Notes: generated from the letters alone by a model not told the origin. A DNA stretch of 64,000 bases from Thermoproteota archaeon (GCA_032249235.1 JAVVGF010000004.1:32001-96000); one strand, 5' to 3'. Positions 16,117 through 43,924 are shown, counted from the stretch's first letter. Translations and numbers: made by a program.

Positions 16117-17330
16117 ATTTACCAAGCTATTTAGTTGAGAAGCTTAATAAAAGTGGTGTTTCAAAAAGCGTAATACTTGCTCTTGAAGAAAAATTAAGCA
16201 AATATGGTAAGATAAGTGAAAAGAAGCTTGAAGAAATAGTAGATAAAGTAGTTGAAAATTACAGAAGAGCTTTAGTAGAACCAGGTGAAAACGTTGGGGT
16301 TGTTGCAGCTCAATCAGTAGGAGAACCAGGCACACAAATGACTTTAAGAACTTTTCACTTCGTTGGAGTCAAAGAGTTAAATGTAACTCTAGGTCTTCCA
16401 AGATTAATAGAGATATTTGATGCACGTAGTAAACCTACAACACCGACGATGATAATACCTTTAGAGAAGAAATATGCTAAAGATAGAGAAAAAGCCTATG
16501 AAATTGCAATAAAATTAGAAGAATTATTAGTCGAGGATATTGTTGAAGTTTCAAGCATTGATTTAGTTAACAATGAAATAATATTTGAATTAAATGCGAA
16601 TCTGTTAAAGAGTAGGAATATAAATACAGACGAATTGAAGGAAATAATATCTTCGAAGGTAAAATCTATCGAAGTAAAAATTTCTGGCGGTAAAAAAGGA
16701 GCTCCTTTGATTATGCAAATAAAATCTAAGAGAGAGCTAACAATACAACAATTGAATAAGCTGAAAGATAGAATACTTAAAGTTAGAATAAAAGGTGTTC
16801 CTAAAATTAGGAGAACAGTTATAAGAAAAGTCGATTTAGGGAATGGAGATTATGAATACGTAATTGCAACTGAAGGTTCAAACTTAAAGGACATCTTAAG
16901 TATTGAAGGTATAGATAAAAGAAGAGTTTATACTAATGATATTTTCGAAGTATATAGTATATTAGGAATAGAAGCTGCAAGGGAAGTCATAATAAGAGAA
17001 GCAATGCGAGTACTTGAAGATCAAGGTTTGGATGTGAATATAAGGCATGTCATGTTAATAGCAGATGCGATGACAAGAACTGGTAGAATAAAGCAAATAG
17101 GCAGGCATGGCATTGTAGGAGACAAAGCGAGTGTTTTGGCAAAGGCTGCTTTTGAACTTACAACGAAGCACTTGTATGATGCTTCAGCTAGAGCAGCGGT
17201 GGATCATATATTGGGAAATGCAGAAAGCATAATTACTGGACAGCCAATAAGAAGCGGTACAGGTCATATAAAAGTTTATTTAGACCTTTGGAAACTACTT
17301 GGTAAGTCGGAGAATGGTGGATCTAGCTAA
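16113..17330 (+). CDS. rpoA2: RNA polymerase subunit Rpo1C (A'')
   Basis: [31 protein letters not shown]. Confidence 0.98.
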
Positions 17331-17619
17331 GGAATTACCTTTACTTTTTAAGACGGGTAAAGTAGTTTATGGTTACAAAGAAGTGATTAATGTATTGTAT
17401 CATGGCAAAGTGAATGGTGTAATCATAGCCTCGAAAATACCGAAAGAAATTTTCGATAAATTAACTTATTATTGCAAACTCGCTAATGTTCCATACTATA
17501 TTTTTGAAGGAAGCAGTGCTGAATTGGGAAAGCTATGCGGGAAAAATTTCGTAATAAGTTCAATAGCTATTTTAAATGCCGGCGAATCGAGCATTCTAGA
17601 TTTATTTAAGAATGAATGA
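17314..17619 (+). CDS. rpl30e: 50S ribosomal protein L30e
   Basis: KTGKVV.G, ELG.LCGK.F; synteny. Confidence 0.93.
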
Positions 17620-20794: not shown

Positions 20795-20890
20795 GCCGGG
20801 ATACGAAAGCCCGAAAGCCTAGCGGACAAGGCGCAGGCCTTGAGAGCCTGTGGGCGTAAGCCCGCGTGGGTTCGAATCCCACTCCCGGCG
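20795..20890 (+). tRNA. tRNA-Ser(UGA) with a 13-nt intron at position 8/9 (20803-20815)
   Basis: Spliced GCCGGGAT|AGCCTAGC matches the 5' ends of the two other tRNA-Ser genes here; CAGGC-CT TGA GA-GCCTG; long variable arm; G73. Confidence 0.9.
20803..20815 (+). other. BHB-type tRNA intron ACGAAAGCCCGAA
   Basis: GC/GC outer helix, CGGG/CCCG 4-bp central helix, ATA and AAA 3-nt bulges, C-GAAA-G inner hairpin. Confidence 0.85.
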
Positions 20891-36362: not shown

Positions 36363-36612
36363 ATTAGCAGTAAAGTTAAGAGGTAGAGATGCAGGTCGTA
36401 AATGCGTATTAGTTAATATAATCGACAAAAATTTCGTAACAGTAACGGGTCCTAAGCAATTAACAGGTGTTAGAAGAAGGAAGGTGAATATAGATCATTT
36501 ATTGCTATTACCTCAGCAGATTAAAATATCCAAGAATGCATCTGATGAAGAAGTGTTGAAAGCTTTGCAAGAAGCAAATTTAATAGATTTCATGAAAGAA
36601 GGAGTGATATGA
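36337..36612 (+). CDS. rpl14e: 50S ribosomal protein L14e
   Basis: GR.AVK..GRDAG.KC, VTGPK..TGV.RR.VN..H. Confidence 0.95.
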   Translation: MPPLVTIGRLAVKLRGRDAGRKCVLVNIIDKNFVTVTGPKQLTGVRRRKVNIDHLLLLPQQIKISKNASDEEVLKALQEANLIDFMKEGVI

Positions 36613-37588
36613 ATCAAAGACAAATTTTATACAAAAAGGATAGTAAAGTTAGGATAAAGCTTAGCCCAATCCCTTTTGTTAAAAGGACCATTGAAGAGCA
36701 TTTGAATTATTCTTTTTGTCTTCTAGATAAGCCTAGAGGACCAACAAGTCATGAAATTGCTGCTTGGATTAAAAAAGAATTCGGAATACCTGTTACTCAC
36801 AGCGGGACCCTAGAAGATTTTGGGGAAATCCCGCTGTATCAGGTTTATTATTAATATTATTTGGAAAAGCTAGGAAGCTGAGCAATTTGCTGGCTAGATT
36901 TGATAAGACTTATATCTGCGAAATGCAATTGCATGAAGAAGTAGAGGAAGAAAAATTAAGAAATGTCATTAATCTTTTTGTAGGAAAAATATACCAAAAG
37001 CCTCCTTTGAGATCCGCTGTTAAAAAAGTTCCAAGAATTAGAAAAATTTATTCAATCGATATTTTAGACATTGTTGGAAGGAATGTCTTGATGCAAGTTA
37101 GATGTGAAGCAGGCACTTATGTTAGGAAACTTTGTTTCGATATAGGAGAAGTCCTAGGTTCTGGTGCACATATGACTGAGCTTAGGAGAATTGCAATTGG
37201 TTTTTTAGACGAAAATTATGAATACATTGCTACAATGCACGAATTATTCGGAGCTTATAGATTGTGGAAGAATAAAAACGAAGATTTCTATTTGAGATAT
37301 TATTTAAGACCTATTGAAGAATTGCTTTTCTTTTTACCTAAGGTATTTGTTAAAGATACTGCTCTTTTCTCAATAACTCATGGTTCTTTTATTGCAGCAC
37401 CTGCTATTGTAGCTGTTACATCAGATTTGAAAAAGAATCAAAATGTTGGCATATATAATTTAAACAATGAGCTGATTGCAATAGGTAAATCTGAAATGGA
37501 TGCTAAAGAAGCAATAGAAAAAGAAAAAGGAGTGGTTGTAAAAATAGATAAGGTTTTGAAAGTATATGAGAAGAAAGAAGTCGAATGA
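36609..37588 (+). CDS. cbf5: H/ACA RNA-guided pseudouridine synthase Cbf5, join(36609..36813,36828..37588), 321 aa
   Basis: DKP.GPTSH, then HSGTL-D-PAVSG restored by removing 14 nt; YQKPP.RSAVK, AGTY.RKLC, PUA domain. Confidence 0.93.
36814..36827 (+). other. 14-nt BHB mRNA intron in cbf5 (AAGATTTTGGGGAA)
   Basis: AGCGGGA/TCCCGCT exon helix, CCCT/GGGG central helix, AGA and AAA bulges; splicing gives CTA G|AT CCC. Confidence 0.9.
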
Positions 37589-39495: not shown

Positions 39496-40954
39496 AATTA
39501 AATTTTACGAAAGAGAATATCAAATTCTTAATAAAATTCTTAATGATTTCAAAAGCCTTCAAGAATTATCCAGCGAGTTGAACATCCCTTTCGCTACTCT
39601 TTATAGCTGGGTAGAAGATCTGAAGATTAAAGGATATGTTGATGCAAGAGATGAAATTCTTAAAAAGATATCTTTGACAGAAGAAGGAAAAAGATACGCT
39701 GAACAAGGTCTACCTGAGAAGAGATTGGCTTTAATTCTAAAAGAAAAAGAAGCAATGAGTTTAGAAGAATTGAAATCATTCTTCACAAAAAATGAGTTGG
39801 ATATTGCAATAATGCATGCTTTAAAAAAAGGCTTTATAAAATATTTTGAAGGAAAAATAAAATTTGTAAGTTTGTATGAGACAAATGATGAAAAGTTATT
39901 AAATGAGATAAAAAATAAAGGTGAAATAATCGTAAATGAATTAAATGAAGAATTAAAAATTTTAAAAAGGAGAGGATTAATTGAAGTAAATGAATTTAAA
40001 AAGACTTATATAAAAGCAAGCAAATTTGTAAGAGATTCAATAATATCTAAAAATTATGTAATAATACCTGAAATTTCTAAAATAACAAGCGATGATATTA
40101 TCTCAGGCAAATGGAAACAATATCCTTTGAAGGCTTATAACTTAGAAGCTTTACCACCAATCGTTTATTTTGGTAGATCGCAAGTATACATGAGATTTCT
40201 TGAAGAAGTTAAAAAAGTCCTATTAGAAATGGGTTTTGAAGAATATGATTGGGATTATATCCTTCCAGAATTATGGAATTTCGATGTGTTATTTGTTCCG
40301 CAAGATCATCCAGCAAGAGATGTTCAAGACACTTTCAGAGTAAATCTTCCTCCAGCTATTTTGGATGAAATTTTTGCTGAAAAAGTTAAAGATATGCATG
40401 AAAAGGTATTCAATGAAGCTTTAGGATGGAACTATAAATGGGATGCAGAAATTGCTCGAAGGCTTGTTTTAAGAACACATACAACACCCGTTTCTATAAG
40501 ATACATATACGAGAATAAAGATAAAGAAGCAAAAGTTTTTTGTATTTCTAGAAACTTTAGAAGAGATTTGCCTGATAGAACACATTTCATAGAATTTTAT
40601 CAATGTGAAGGAATAATGGTAGGAAATAAGCTAAATTTCTCTAATTTATTATATTTCCTTAAAGAATTTGCCTCAAGATTGGGCCTAGAGAAAATTAGAT
40701 TCAAGCCTAGCTACTTTCCTTTCACTGAACCAAGTGTAGAAGGTTCTGTCTATCATGATAAATTAGGTTGGATCGAAGCCTTACCTGGAGGAATGTTCAG
40801 ACCTGAAATGTTAAATATGCTCGGAGTTAAATCTCGAGTTCTAGCATGGGGAATAGGTATTGATAGACTTGCAATGGCTTATTTAGGAATAGATGATATA
40901 AGAGAATTGTTCTCAAAGGATTTGAATTTCCTAAGAAGTGCAAGAATGTTGTAA
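39485..40954 (+). CDS. pheS: Phenylalanyl-tRNA synthetase alpha
   Basis: WNFD.LF.PQDHPARD.QDTF, LRTHTT, YFPFTEPS, AWG.G.DR. Confidence 0.97.
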   Translation: MMNEIKFYEREYQILNKILNDFKSLQELSSELNIPFATLYSWVEDLKIKGYVDARDEILKKISLTEEGKRYAEQGLPEKRLALILKEKEAMSLEELKSFFTKNELDIAIMHALKKGFIKYFEGKIKFVSLYETNDEKLLNEIKNKGEIIVNELNEELKILKRRGLIEVNEFKKTYIKASKFVRDSIISKNYVIIPEISKITSDDIISGKWKQYPLKAYNLEALPPIVYFGRSQVYMRFLEEVKKVLLEMGFEEYDWDYILPELWNFDVLFVPQDHPARDVQDTFRVNLPPAILDEIFAEKVKDMHEKVFNEALGWNYKWDAEIARRLVLRTHTTPVSIRYIYENKDKEAKVFCISRNFRRDLPDRTHFIEFYQCEGIMVGNKLNFSNLLYFLKEFASRLGLEKIRFKPSYFPFTEPSVEGSVYHDKLGWIEALPGGMFRPEMLNMLGVKSRVLAWGIGIDRLAMAYLGIDDIRELFSKDLNFLRSARML

Positions 40955-42612
40955 TGCCAACGATAATCCTAGATAAGAAAAGGATTTTCAGAAGCTTAAA
41001 TAAGGAATTATCTTTAGAAGAATTAGAAAGGTTACTAGAATATCTTAAATGTGAAATTAAAGAAGAAAAAGAAGACGAGCTAATATGTGAAATAACAACA
41101 GACAGAGCAGATTGTTTCACTACTGAAGGAATTATAAGAGCATTAAAAGGTATTCTTGGAATGGAAAAAGGATTAATAAAATTCGATTTCTTCGATGATG
41201 AATTCGAGGTCTATATAGATGAAAATGTTTCAAATGTAAGGCCTTATGTAGTTATGGCAACTGTGAGAGGAGTAAAACTCGATGTTAGAGCATTAGAAAG
41301 CATAATAAGATTTCAAGAAGTACTACATGAAACTTTAGGTAGAAATAGAAGAAAGGCTTCGATTGGAATTTATGACATTTCAAAGCTCGATAAAAAAATA
41401 TATTACAAATGCCTCCCTTTGGATGAGATAAAATTCAGACCCCTTGATAAAGATGAGTTGATGAATGGATATAGAATATTGAATGAAACAGAAAAAGGAA
41501 TACAATATAAACATTTAATACCTGAAAAAAAGGCACCCGTATTGATTGATTCAAAAGGGACTTTTTTGAGCCTAGCGCCGATAATAAATTCCCAAGATGC
41601 TAAAGTAACAGTAAGAACAACTGATATATTAATAGATTCTACAGGCTTTGATATCAATTTCATAACTTCAATAGTATCTTTAATGGCTTATGCAATTAGC
41701 TTTTATGGAGGAAAGATAGGTTTACTTAATCATCATTATCCTAACAAGTCTTTCAAAATAAGCTTCAAAAATAGAAATTTGGTTTTGGAGAAAAATTATG
41801 TAGAAGATATATTAGGTTTTTCAATAAACGATTATGAGCTTGAAGATATTTTGTTAAGAGCAAGATATGGAATTGAAAAGAAGGATAATAAATATAATGT
41901 CGAAGTACCTTTTTACAGATTAGATGTTCTAAATAGCATAGATATAATAGAAGATATAGCAATAATAAAAGGATATAGCAACATAGAATTGAAAAGTCCT
42001 ATCCTTGAAACTAGAAGTAAAATAAGCAATAAAAGTATAATAGCTAGAACTTTCAGAGAAATATTCAATGGTTTCGGTTTCCAAGAAGTTACCAATTATA
42101 TGATTTGTAATAGTGAAACTCAAACAGAAAAAGTAATGTTGAATAAAGAAGAAATTGGTCTCATTCTTCTTGTAAATCCAATTAGTAAAGAATATGATTG
42201 CATTAGAGCAAATATATTCCCTTGTCTTTTAGATTTCTTATATTATAACAGGAGTTATTCTTATCCTCAGAAAATATATGAAATAGGAGATGTAATCTAT
42301 TATAAAAGTAATTCAATTCATACAGATTTCAGATTTTCTTCTTTAATAATACATAATGATGCAAGCTTTGAAGAAATGCATAGTTTCTTATATAGTTCAT
42401 TTAAAGTCTTGAATTTAGATTTCAGATTAAGAGGAAATGATTTACCTTTCTTACTAAATGGAAGGAGGGCAGACATAATAGTTGGTGATGAAAATATAGG
42501 ATGGATTGGAGAAATTAATCCAGAAATTTCTATAGGTTTTTCTTTATACCAACCAATTGTAGCTTGTGAATTAAGCTTAAGTAAAATCTTAAAATTTATT
42601 TTTAATAAATAA
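40954..42612 (+). CDS. pheT: Phenylalanyl-tRNA synthetase beta
   Basis: DR.D, RPY, QE.LH..LGR.R, R.DV....D.IED.AI..GY. Confidence 0.95.
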   Translation: MPTIILDKKRIFRSLNKELSLEELERLLEYLKCEIKEEKEDELICEITTDRADCFTTEGIIRALKGILGMEKGLIKFDFFDDEFEVYIDENVSNVRPYVVMATVRGVKLDVRALESIIRFQEVLHETLGRNRRKASIGIYDISKLDKKIYYKCLPLDEIKFRPLDKDELMNGYRILNETEKGIQYKHLIPEKKAPVLIDSKGTFLSLAPIINSQDAKVTVRTTDILIDSTGFDINFITSIVSLMAYAISFYGGKIGLLNHHYPNKSFKISFKNRNLVLEKNYVEDILGFSINDYELEDILLRARYGIEKKDNKYNVEVPFYRLDVLNSIDIIEDIAIIKGYSNIELKSPILETRSKISNKSIIARTFREIFNGFGFQEVTNYMICNSETQTEKVMLNKEEIGLILLVNPISKEYDCIRANIFPCLLDFLYYNRSYSYPQKIYEIGDVIYYKSNSIHTDFRFSSLIIHNDASFEEMHSFLYSSFKVLNLDFRLRGNDLPFLLNGRRADIIVGDENIGWIGEINPEISIGFSLYQPIVACELSLSKILKFIFNK

Positions 42613-42616
42613 TCTT

Positions 42617-42713
42617 GGGGGTGCATCCTTATTGAGAGAGCTATAACGAATGGGTGAATACCCTTGATGAGTTATAGTGTTGTTAATAAGGATCAGGGTG
42701 CACCCCCACCACA
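42617..42713 (+). ncRNA. Structured K-turn RNA (H/ACA-like or unknown class)
   Basis: GGGGGTGCA/TGCACCCCC, TCCTTATT/AATAAGGA, CTATAAC/GTTATAG, tandem GA pairs with GAT bulge, GGGT-GAAT-ACCC cap, 3' ACCACA. Confidence 0.7.
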
Positions 42714-42760
42714 GGATAATTTAATATTCTTCTTAGAAGATTTTAACAAGGTGAATTTAA

Positions 42761-43924
42761 ATGGGTGGTCCTCCTGTTAATGCTAAATATATATTAATAG
42801 CTAGATTTGAAGTTGATGGCGTAGTAGAAAAATCAGACATTATAGGTGCTCTATTCGGACAAACTGAAGGATTGCTAGGAGATGAGCTAGAACTTAGAGA
42901 GTTGCAGAAAATAGGAAAAGTTGGAAGAATTGATGTAGAATACGAAATAAAAGGAGGAAGAACAGTAGGAACAATAATAGTACCAACGAACTTGGATAAG
43001 CCAGAAGTAGCTTTGATTGCAGCTGCTATAGAAACGGTGGATAAAGTAGGTCCTAATTCAGCAAAAATTGAATTGAAAGAAATAAAGGATGCTAGAGAAG
43101 AAAAAAGGAGCAGAATTTTAGAAAGAGCAAAAGAAATATTGTTGAAATGGAAAGAAAGCAAAAGTGTTGAATCTTCTGATTTGATAAAAGCTCTTACAGA
43201 GGCAATTAAAGTATCGCAGATAATAAGCTACGGTCCTGAAAAACTTCCTGCAGGTCCTGATATAGACAACTCTCAGGAAATTATAATTGTTGAAGGAAGA
43301 GCAGATGTGGTAAATTTACTAAAACATGGATATAGGAATGTTATAGCATTGGATGGTTCTAAAATACCTCAGACTATAATAAATCTTTCGAAGAATAAAA
43401 GGACAATAGCTTTCTTAGACGGTGATAGAGCTGGAGATTTAATATTGAAGGAATTGCTGAGTGTAGCAAAAATAGATTATGTAGCAAGGGCTCCATTTGG
43501 TAAGGAAGTAGAAGAATTGAGCGGTAAAGAGATAGCTGCTGCATTAAATGATAAAAGACCTGCTTCAGATTATATTACTAGTTTAAAACAAGAACAGAAA
43601 ATTCCTAAGCTTCAGCAAGTAAGCGAGCTTATTAAATCAGTTATAGGGACGATGGAGGCCTTAATTCTTGATAACGATTATAAAATTATAGAGCGCATAC
43701 CGCTTAAGGACGTAATAGATAAAATATCCCAAATGGAATCTTTTGGGGCATTAATATTAGATGGCATAATAACGCAAAGATTGATAGATTTGTGCAAGGA
43801 GAGAAAAGTCAGCGCTATATACGGTTATAAAATAGGAAACATTACTAATATACCTCAAGATCTATCAATATTCTTATTTGATGATCAAGGGAATATAAAG
43901 AGATATGAAATTCGAACTCAATGA
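42761..43924 (+). CDS. dnaG: Archaeal DnaG (exosome-associated, TOPRIM)
   Basis: GA.FGQTEGLLG, IIVEGRADV, F.DGDR.G. Confidence 0.96.
   Translation: MGGPPVNAKYILIARFEVDGVVEKSDIIGALFGQTEGLLGDELELRELQKIGKVGRIDVEYEIKGGRTVGTIIVPTNLDKPEVALIAAAIETVDKVGPNSAKIELKEIKDAREEKRSRILERAKEILLKWKESKSVESSDLIKALTEAIKVSQIISYGPEKLPAGPDIDNSQEIIIVEGRADVVNLLKHGYRNVIALDGSKIPQTIINLSKNKRTIAFLDGDRAGDLILKELLSVAKIDYVARAPFGKEVEELSGKEIAAALNDKRPASDYITSLKQEQKIPKLQQVSELIKSVIGTMEALILDNDYKIIERIPLKDVIDKISQMESFGALILDGIITQRLIDLCKERKVSAIYGYKIGNITNIPQDLSIFLFDDQGNIKRYEIRTQ

Follow-up and report, generated by a model that had tools for sequence, protein, structure and literature searches.

The pseudouridines in helix 69 of the large ribosomal RNA are the most conserved ones of the ribosome, and archaeal lineages differ in the way in which these are made. 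Productive archaeal box H/ACA guides have been described with a GA stem of 10 layers, a lower stem of 7–9 bp and a distance of 14–15 nt to the box (PMC4652768; PMC2377435). The internal loop which carries the guides has 5–11 nt per strand; by the Pyrococcus count the helix H2 has 5–6 bp, an H2 of 7 bp is non-productive, and of the two arms the 3′ guide matters more (PMC2377435). Functional guides with degenerate NCA boxes have been reported from the phylum studied here (PMC4652768).

Guides for helix 69 itself have been described in different forms. In Pyrococcus abyssi, the last motif of the three-motif RNA Pab40 guides 23S Psi2016, one of the two highly conserved pseudouridines of stem-loop 69 (Muller et al. 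2008, PMC2377435). In Haloferax volcanii, both pseudouridines of helix 69 are the product of one pocket of sR-h45, which acts on an unpaired UNUN and also accepts a UCUG variant; the distance from box to target exceeds 15 for the second U, and the free 3′ ACA of this two-hairpin RNA is required for the atypical reaction (PMC7075261). The atypical guides of Pyrobaculum and Sulfolobus islandicus, which belong to the same phylum as the organism studied here, have a degenerate or missing ANA and are still functional with Cbf5 (PMC11077068; PMC4652768). One of them, sR148 of S. islandicus, acts on 23S U2060, which corresponds to E. coli 1917 (PMC11077068).

The window, that is, the whole stretch of 64,000 nucleotides from a Thermoproteota archaeon analysed here, contains a hairpin with a kink-turn (K-turn) between pheT and a dnaG-type gene (Table 1); beyond dnaG follow pelota, an M50 protease, TtuA and the SRP RNA. 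We read the hairpin, with a probability of roughly 0.7, as a stand-alone, single-hairpin box H/ACA guide sRNA for helix 69, which has its own promoter and is shut by a closing helix. A scan of the whole window with Rfam at the gathering score returned only the SRP RNA and eight tRNAs; the hairpin matches no Rfam family at that score. The tRNA-Ser(TGA) at 20809–20890 (+) is low against the Rfam tRNA model, with 41.7 bits against 57–70 for the other tRNAs. An E-value scan of 42560–42770 gave chance-level miRNA and snoRNA matches only (best E 1.4), without any H/ACA match at E≤10.

Table 1. Position of the hairpin RNA, of its parts and of neighbouring features in the window
Feature	Position	Strand	Remarks
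cbf5	36609–37588	+	5 kb upstream; DKCLD domain match 36612–36758; read in two frames
pheT ORF	40954–42612		stop codon 42610–42612
Putative sRNA promoter, AT-rich and TATA-like	42588–42600	+	about 17–28 nt upstream of the RNA base; overlaps the end of pheT; predicted from sequence
K-turn hairpin	42616–42708	+	starts 4 nt past the pheT stop codon
P0, closing (basal) helix, 5′ strand UGGGGGUGC	42616–42624	+	pairs with 42700–42708
P1, lower stem, 5′ strand AUCCUUAU	42625–42632	+	7 conserved pairs with 42687–42693
Pocket, 5′ guide strand	42633–42640	+	GAGAGAG (42634–42640) invariant in 12/12 genomes and the Hecatellales MAG
P2, upper stem, 5′ strand CUAUAAC	42641–42647	+	7 pairs with 42671–42677
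K-turn module	42648–42670	+	GA 42648–49, non-bulged strand; C-stem and GAAU loop 42650–42665; bulge GAU 42666–68; GA 42669–70
P2, 3′ strand GUUAUAG	42671–42677	+	from alignment
Pocket, 3′ guide strand UGUUGUUA	42678–42685	+	UGUUGU invariant in 12/12
P1, 3′ strand	42686–42693	+	from alignment
Bulge at the ACA-box position	42693–42699	+	UCA 42693–95 (degenerate NCA box), then GGGU
P0, 3′ strand GCACCCCCA	42700–42708	+	from alignment
Tail CCACA	42709–42713	+	unconserved; CCA and ACA there by chance
Conserved TTTAATATTCTTCTT	42719–42736	+	between sRNA and dnaG; in 4 genomes of the genus
dnaG-type Toprim gene	42761–43924		begins 53 nt beyond the hairpin element

The elements which the first-pass annotation had named, namely the hairpin, the K-turn made of GA opposite GAT-GA, its GGGT-GAAT-ACCC cap, the TCAGGG bulge (42693–42698) and the ACCACA tail (42708–42713), were all found in place when checked in the sequence. 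The same holds for the GC-rich base, GGGGGTGCA at 42617–42625 and TGCACCCCC at 42699–42707, and for the stems TCCTTATT/AATAAGGA and CTATAAC/GTTATAG. Two pairings at the base had to be corrected: U 42616 pairs with A 42708, and A 42625 goes better with the conserved U 42693 than with T 42699. The fold of the + strand has −45.3 kcal/mol compared with a mean of −24.7 for dinucleotide shuffles (z −6.33), none of the 200 shuffles being as stable; the fold of the reverse complement is weaker (z −3.86). G·U pairs (39-50 within a single genus, 33-58 within a single genome), together with the scores of a covariance model, R1, in genomes of the family (98–115 bits on the + strand, 19–32 bits on the − strand), fix the strand as +.

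The four-helix structure was examined in an alignment of seven sequences, the window and six relatives matched by BLAST. All 182 pair cells were standard, and double-sided changes were observed for 8 of the 26 pairs, spread over all four helices. When the partners were slid by 1–3 columns as a control, pairing fell to 43–54% and double changes disappeared. The weight of the covariation rests on this slid control and on strongly diverged copies; the shuffle control ignores relatedness. In P0, the eight counted pairs are 100% paired, two of them with double changes (G-C to A-U, U-A to C-G), and the outermost pair, U-A, is invariant. In P1, double changes were found in 2 of the 7 conserved pairs, and the genome of the window alone has an eighth pair (42632/42686). 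P2 shows them in 3 of 7 pairs and is wholly replaced by CACAGGC/GCCUGUG in the sister family. The 1b·1n G·A pair and L2–L3 (A, U) of the K-turn are invariant in 12/12 genomes and the pairs of the C-stem covary, while the 2b·2n pair is A·G in the window's genus, U·G in genus g3 and A·A in genus g4. The description of the K-turn as canonical thus holds for this genus and not for g3 and g4, in which 2b·2n is non-standard.

The segment between P1 and P2, taken for a small internal loop at first, is a large guide-carrying loop, the strands GAGAGAG and UGUUGU(U) being invariant in all 12 genomes. That these strands stay invariant while the surrounding helices are rewritten is the signature of guides reading a conserved target.

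The RNA occurs as a single copy in each of the 12 genomes of the order, as found by covariance model and pattern searches. R1, built from the copies which BLAST had matched, found the element in 9/9 genomes of the window's family. A search of whole genomes with R1 missed the sister family; diverged copies (30–34 bits) were seen in 3/3 of its genomes only when the DNA upstream of dnaG was scored with the filters off. These copies have identical pocket strands, with every helix swapped for another GC-rich one, and RNAfold gives the same architecture for them (z −4.7 to −6.3); a single pairing register for both families was not reached in a mixed MAFFT alignment. The order pheT–RNA–dnaG is kept in 9/9 genomes of the family, across which PheT proteins are only 50–67% identical, indicating that the RNA is held more tightly than its neighbour; the same order was found in G011. 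A weak R1 match in G009:C6 (E 0.22) was dropped, the locus (L044) being without a pheT or dnaG match.

A strict pattern was searched in 185,579 species genomes and matched 22 loci, 8 in the order (the records of which are variously named Thermoprotei, Crenarchaeota or Geoarchaeota) and one in a MAG of Candidatus Hecatellales (Bathyarchaeia). The remaining 13 loci, 12 bacterial and one archaeal, had no model support at the site. The Hecatellales contig carries the same pocket as the window RNA together with a K-turn, a 7-bp lower stem, a 7-nt internal loop opposite ACA and a closing helix of 12 bp. There, pheT lies directly upstream of the RNA, and the gene downstream encodes a class I W/Y tRNA synthetase. 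Its PheT fragment was not matched to that of the window by tblastn at 1e-3, which suggests that the host is not a close relative; it is a lone MAG contig for which mis-binning is possible. Outside the order, a loose pocket pattern gave 9 matches, which are spread over 8 of 108 genomes of the class. By eye none of them has a K-turn hairpin, and the one match that was folded, in G022, has a palindrome without a K-turn.

Comparison with the published rules shows how far the hairpin follows a known type. The lower stem has 7 conserved pairs, 8 in the genome of the window, and the pocket strands of 7–9 nt lie within the known loop sizes. U 42678 and G 42640 may form a G·U pair, which together with 7 Watson-Crick pairs and 2 G·A pairs would make a GA stem of 10 layers with the K-turn at the fixed distance, although by the older Pyrococcus count the 7-bp helix is one pair too long. 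Where ANA would be expected, 14–15 nt on the 3′ side of the GA stem, UCA (42693–95) stands in the window copy, at 14 nt. In the window's family this bulge reads UCA in 8/9 genomes and UUA in one, so that C is kept in 8/9 and A in 9/9, while the homologous bulge is ACA in G009, G010, G011 and the Hecatellales MAG (L091), 14–15 nt from the GA stem. Counted from the pocket-closing pair G 42640·U 42678, the distance is 14 nt in the window, 14 nt in G010 and 15 nt in the Hecatellales copy. As the stem, GA-stem and box distances fit the published rules, the core is canonical, with the GC-rich basal stem added on the outside.

The first-pass annotation had taken the ACA at 42711–42713, about 30 nt away, for the box and had called the RNA an atypical guide or an unclassified L7Ae-bound RNA. 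That ACA is not the box. By the alignment, the place of the functional box is the bulge which separates the lower from the basal stem, decayed to UCA in the window's family. What is retained is an H/ACA-type guide RNA which has a K-turn and an atypical geometry; the distant ACA on which the atypical geometry had been based is given up.

The box is not followed by a single-stranded 3′ tail. P0, a covarying helix of 6–12 bp which is GC-rich despite the AT-rich genome, encloses it in every one of the 13 copies. The joint between P0 and P1 consists of 5–7 nt in the 5′ strand and of ACA in the 3′ strand in the sister family and in the Hecatellales copy; in the window's family it has shrunk to 0–1 nt in the 5′ strand and has grown in the 3′ strand to six bases, C-A-R-R-R-N after the paired U. 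As judged by these comparisons, the closing helix around the ACA position is the new feature of what is otherwise a known type of guide. No description of a closing or terminal helix on such guides was found in the literature, by a search which was technically limited and is weak evidence of absence. Two other identities were rejected by inspection: the bulges at the P0/P1 junction face each other without the 4-bp stagger of a bulge-helix-bulge (splicing-endonuclease) motif, and UGAUGA lacks a properly placed box D partner as would be present in a C/D box RNA.

The same genome also has a classic single-hairpin H/ACA sRNA outside the window (G000:C4:373-446, − strand), with a lower stem of 10 bp, a pocket of 6+5 nt and an upper stem of 9 bp. 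In a descriptor scan of the whole genome it came first and the window hairpin second, with scores of 57 and 51, the next being 39. The order of modules and the GAUGA K-turn are the same in both RNAs. In the classic hairpin, ACA follows directly after the lower stem and no pairing was seen between the 12 nt upstream and the 25 nt downstream; since it has no closing helix, P0 is specific to the guide described here and not a habit of the organism.

Nothing convincing was found for a canonical target site (a U plus one unpaired base) in the LSU rRNA of the genome, in the SSU rRNA of a relative or in 45 tRNAs. The SSU rRNA of the genome itself is unassembled and that of the relative was scanned instead. 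There was also no match to U35 of pre-tRNA-Tyr, the target of Sulfolobus sR115, when the intron-bearing tRNA-Tyr was scanned. This tRNA-Tyr(GTA) lies outside the window (G000:C1:131005-131137, + strand), and its 57-nt intron has a GAUGA-bearing hairpin, possibly an intron-borne K-turn sRNA. With 2–6 unpaired bases allowed, the loop of helix 69 in 23S rRNA was the top bipartite site in LSU and SSU, with a score of 27. The 3′ guide, from G 42679 to U 42684, is complementary to GAGUAAC on the 5′ side of the loop over 6 bp in this genome, 5 of them conserved, and the 5′ guide GAGAGAG to CUCUCUU on the 3′ side over 7 bp. UCUGA is left unpaired between them, five bases as against 2–4 documented, and the conserved duplex of the 3′ guide is weak, with three Watson-Crick and two G·U pairs. 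Among the five genomes of the order with an assembled LSU, the flanks of the target do not vary, the sole change being G to A in the unpaired loop. The exposed uridine of the loop would presumably be the equivalent of E. coli 1915, probably together with 1917, by our own alignment.

The closest Rfam match of the homologues leads to the same helix. For all three GC-rich homologues, the best Rfam match was RF00064 (HgcG/Pab40), with 22.5, 17.5 and 16.3 bits, far below the gathering score of 77 bits of this three-motif model, and the window copy gave no match to it at E≤10. In the alignments displayed for two of the three, the match is to the 3′-most motif, with GAUGA, GUGUU and ACA. Motif 3 of Pab40/Pf7/Afu-4 is likewise composed of a lower stem, a pocket, a GA stem and a GAUGA K-turn, and its 3′ guide, which contains GUGUU, keeps the register of the window RNA opposite GUAAC of the helix 69 loop. 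Its ACA lies right past the lower stem, as in the sister-family copies. The two RNAs differ in that Pab40 has three motifs and the window RNA is a single hairpin. According to the Rfam consensus line, the 5′ guide of Pab40 would pair from the loop into the stem and leave a canonical UN, whereas that of the window RNA takes the stem strand only, leaving five bases free; moreover, the Rfam consensus of Pab40 has no closing helix. In bracketing the loop, the predicted pairing resembles stem-loop 2 of sR-h45, with five unpaired target bases instead of four and with an internal box in place of the free ACA. The guides of Pyrobaculum and S. islandicus show the opposite trend, having lost the lower stem with their ends free, while the window RNA has kept this stem and gained a further helix.

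Helix 69 of the large ribosomal RNA is most likely the target of the guide. A genuine H/ACA-type RNP scaffold with another purpose, that is, guiding the modification of an mRNA, another sRNA or an unassembled pre-rRNA spacer, or acting as a non-modifying chaperone, is unlikely, and the argument turns on how the pairing with helix 69 is weighed. Over the rRNA as a whole (4.6 kb), its score is unremarkable, 13 of 200 shuffles reaching it, which along with the non-canonical geometry and the use of a relative's SSU leaves room for another substrate, as do 252 matches above threshold in a genome-wide scan in canonical geometry; these matches are uninformative because the genome is AT-rich and of low complexity. 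For the site itself, on the other hand, pairs of 7-mers drawn from the genome at the spacing of the pocket reached the score in 45 of 200,000 trials, and the helix 69 motif of Pab40, with its GUGUU in the same register, is the nearest Rfam relative. A pocket that is invariant across two classes fits a universally conserved target. With the same scanner, no clear rRNA target was obtained for the classic H/ACA hairpin of the genome; the scanner is thus not a sensitive positive control. With the helix 69 loop predicted as a specific target in rRNA, the RNA is probably not the orphan which it had been called.

The fixed place of the RNA, right behind pheT in three lineages and ahead of dnaG throughout the order, might also be that of a cis-acting element, a K-turn bound by L7Ae or another protein in the pheT 3′ UTR or the dnaG 5′ leader, which guides nothing. 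L7Ae-bound K-turns in mRNAs are known from Sulfolobus, and in the minimum-free-energy fold some pairing occurs between the two pocket strands. Nevertheless, we hold this to be quite improbable. In the Hecatellales MAG the downstream gene is a different one, the K-turn is the least conserved part of the RNA, and the full H/ACA geometry, with ACA at 14–15 nt in four genomes, would be needless for simple L7Ae binding. The region upstream points in the same direction. Besides the TATA-like box in the window, the GC-richer sister family has a TTTATATT or TAAAAATA box, the centre of which lies about 26 nt ahead of the first paired U; in the window's family, AAATTTAAG is present at −31 to −22 in most genomes. 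A second AT-rich, promoter-like box stands ahead of dnaG; TTTAATATTCTTCTT is likely the dnaG promoter (TATA box) and/or the T-rich end or terminator of the sRNA transcript. With a TATA-like box of its own and a separate one for dnaG, the RNA may be read as an independent gene, the transcript of which would span both strands of the closing helix. The one metatranscriptome run, in which 15% of the sampled words were present, gave a sole contig at 42873–43000, inside dnaG, and is uninformative on the sRNA. In a genome of genus g3 (G007, locus L037, 1600–2050), an insertion of about 450 nt separates the sRNA from dnaG.

Past the basal stem, the next three bases are CCA, CUG, UCA, UAG, UAA, UAC, UAU, CAA, CAA, CCA, CCA and CCA in the 12 genomes. 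The first-pass annotation had seen here an acceptor stem with encoded CCA, which is improbable already from the alignment. A mimic of the tRNA acceptor, the stem and A-CCA of which would be seen by RNase P, tRNase Z, the CCA-adding enzyme, PheRS or the PUA domain of Cbf5, is highly improbable even though ACCA follows the stem in 4/12 genomes, the Cbf5 PUA domain binds the CCA of tRNA (PMC2018633) and one Pyrobaculum guide has CCA instead of ANA (PMC4652768), because CCA is lacking in 8/12, A 42708 is paired with the invariant U 42616 and is thus no free discriminator, in genus g4 the entire ACCA pairs with an upstream UGGU inside a 10-bp helix, and neither a T- or D-arm-like element nor a tRNA call by ARAGORN or the Rfam tRNA model was found at the element. 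An unpaired discriminator followed by a conserved single-stranded CCA is therefore absent.

All four proteins of the H/ACA machinery, Cbf5 (with its PUA region), Nop10, Gar1 and L7Ae, are encoded in the genome, the latter three elsewhere than cbf5, and Cbf5 is the pseudouridine synthase expected to use the guide. The cbf5 gene of the window shows a break: frame 0 stops shortly past HSGTL and frame 2 resumes with AVSGLLLILFGKARK. When 14 nt at about 36815–36828, inside an inverted repeat, are omitted, the catalytic GTLDP is in one frame. The break is probably a mini-intron as in crenarchaeal cbf5, or else an assembly frameshift. In S. islandicus, Cbf5 consists of two exon-encoded fragments (PMC11077068). 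Apart from the main L7Ae gene on contig C1, a second gene of the L7Ae family lies in the window at 17326–17598 (+), with 69 bits to PF01248.

In the mechanism which we propose for the helix 69 guide, L7Ae would bind the K-turn, and Cbf5, Nop10 and Gar1 would bind the lower stem and the pocket. Pairing of the pocket strands with both flanks of the loop would open helix 69 and leave U-C-U-G-A free at the base of the GA stem, where the exposed uridine at the 1915 equivalent, and probably that at 1917 too, would be converted to pseudouridine, as with the unpaired UNUN of sR-h45. By joining the 5′ and 3′ ends, P0 would turn the box position into an internal bulge. Our best guess for its role is that it clamps the ends, guards them against exonucleases and, at high temperature, keeps the AU-rich lower stem locked. 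Selection on the first A of the box may have been relaxed once P0 held the ends, and ACA may so have become UCA in the window's family.

More tentatively, and with the odds somewhat against it, clamped H/ACA RNAs could form an undescribed and old class of guides, in which the clamp has taken over from the box the role of anchoring and stabilising, with ACA giving way to UCA in the window's family, and one pocket makes both pseudouridines of helix 69. If so, the same pocket, clamp and position after pheT in an order of Geoarchaeota-type Thermoprotei and in a Bathyarchaeia MAG would mean that the class is old. Should Cbf5 work on a clamped RNA, the rule of a lower stem followed by a single-stranded ACA tail would be looser than crystal structures suggest. 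For annotation, descriptor searches which require a terminal ACA will miss such genes. The decay from ACA to UCA within one order offers a natural series in which the purpose of the box can be studied, and the window's family may be a living intermediate toward the ACA-less guides of Pyrobaculum and Sulfolobus. If the main reading is right, a helix 69 guide would be assigned for an uncultured hot-spring lineage.
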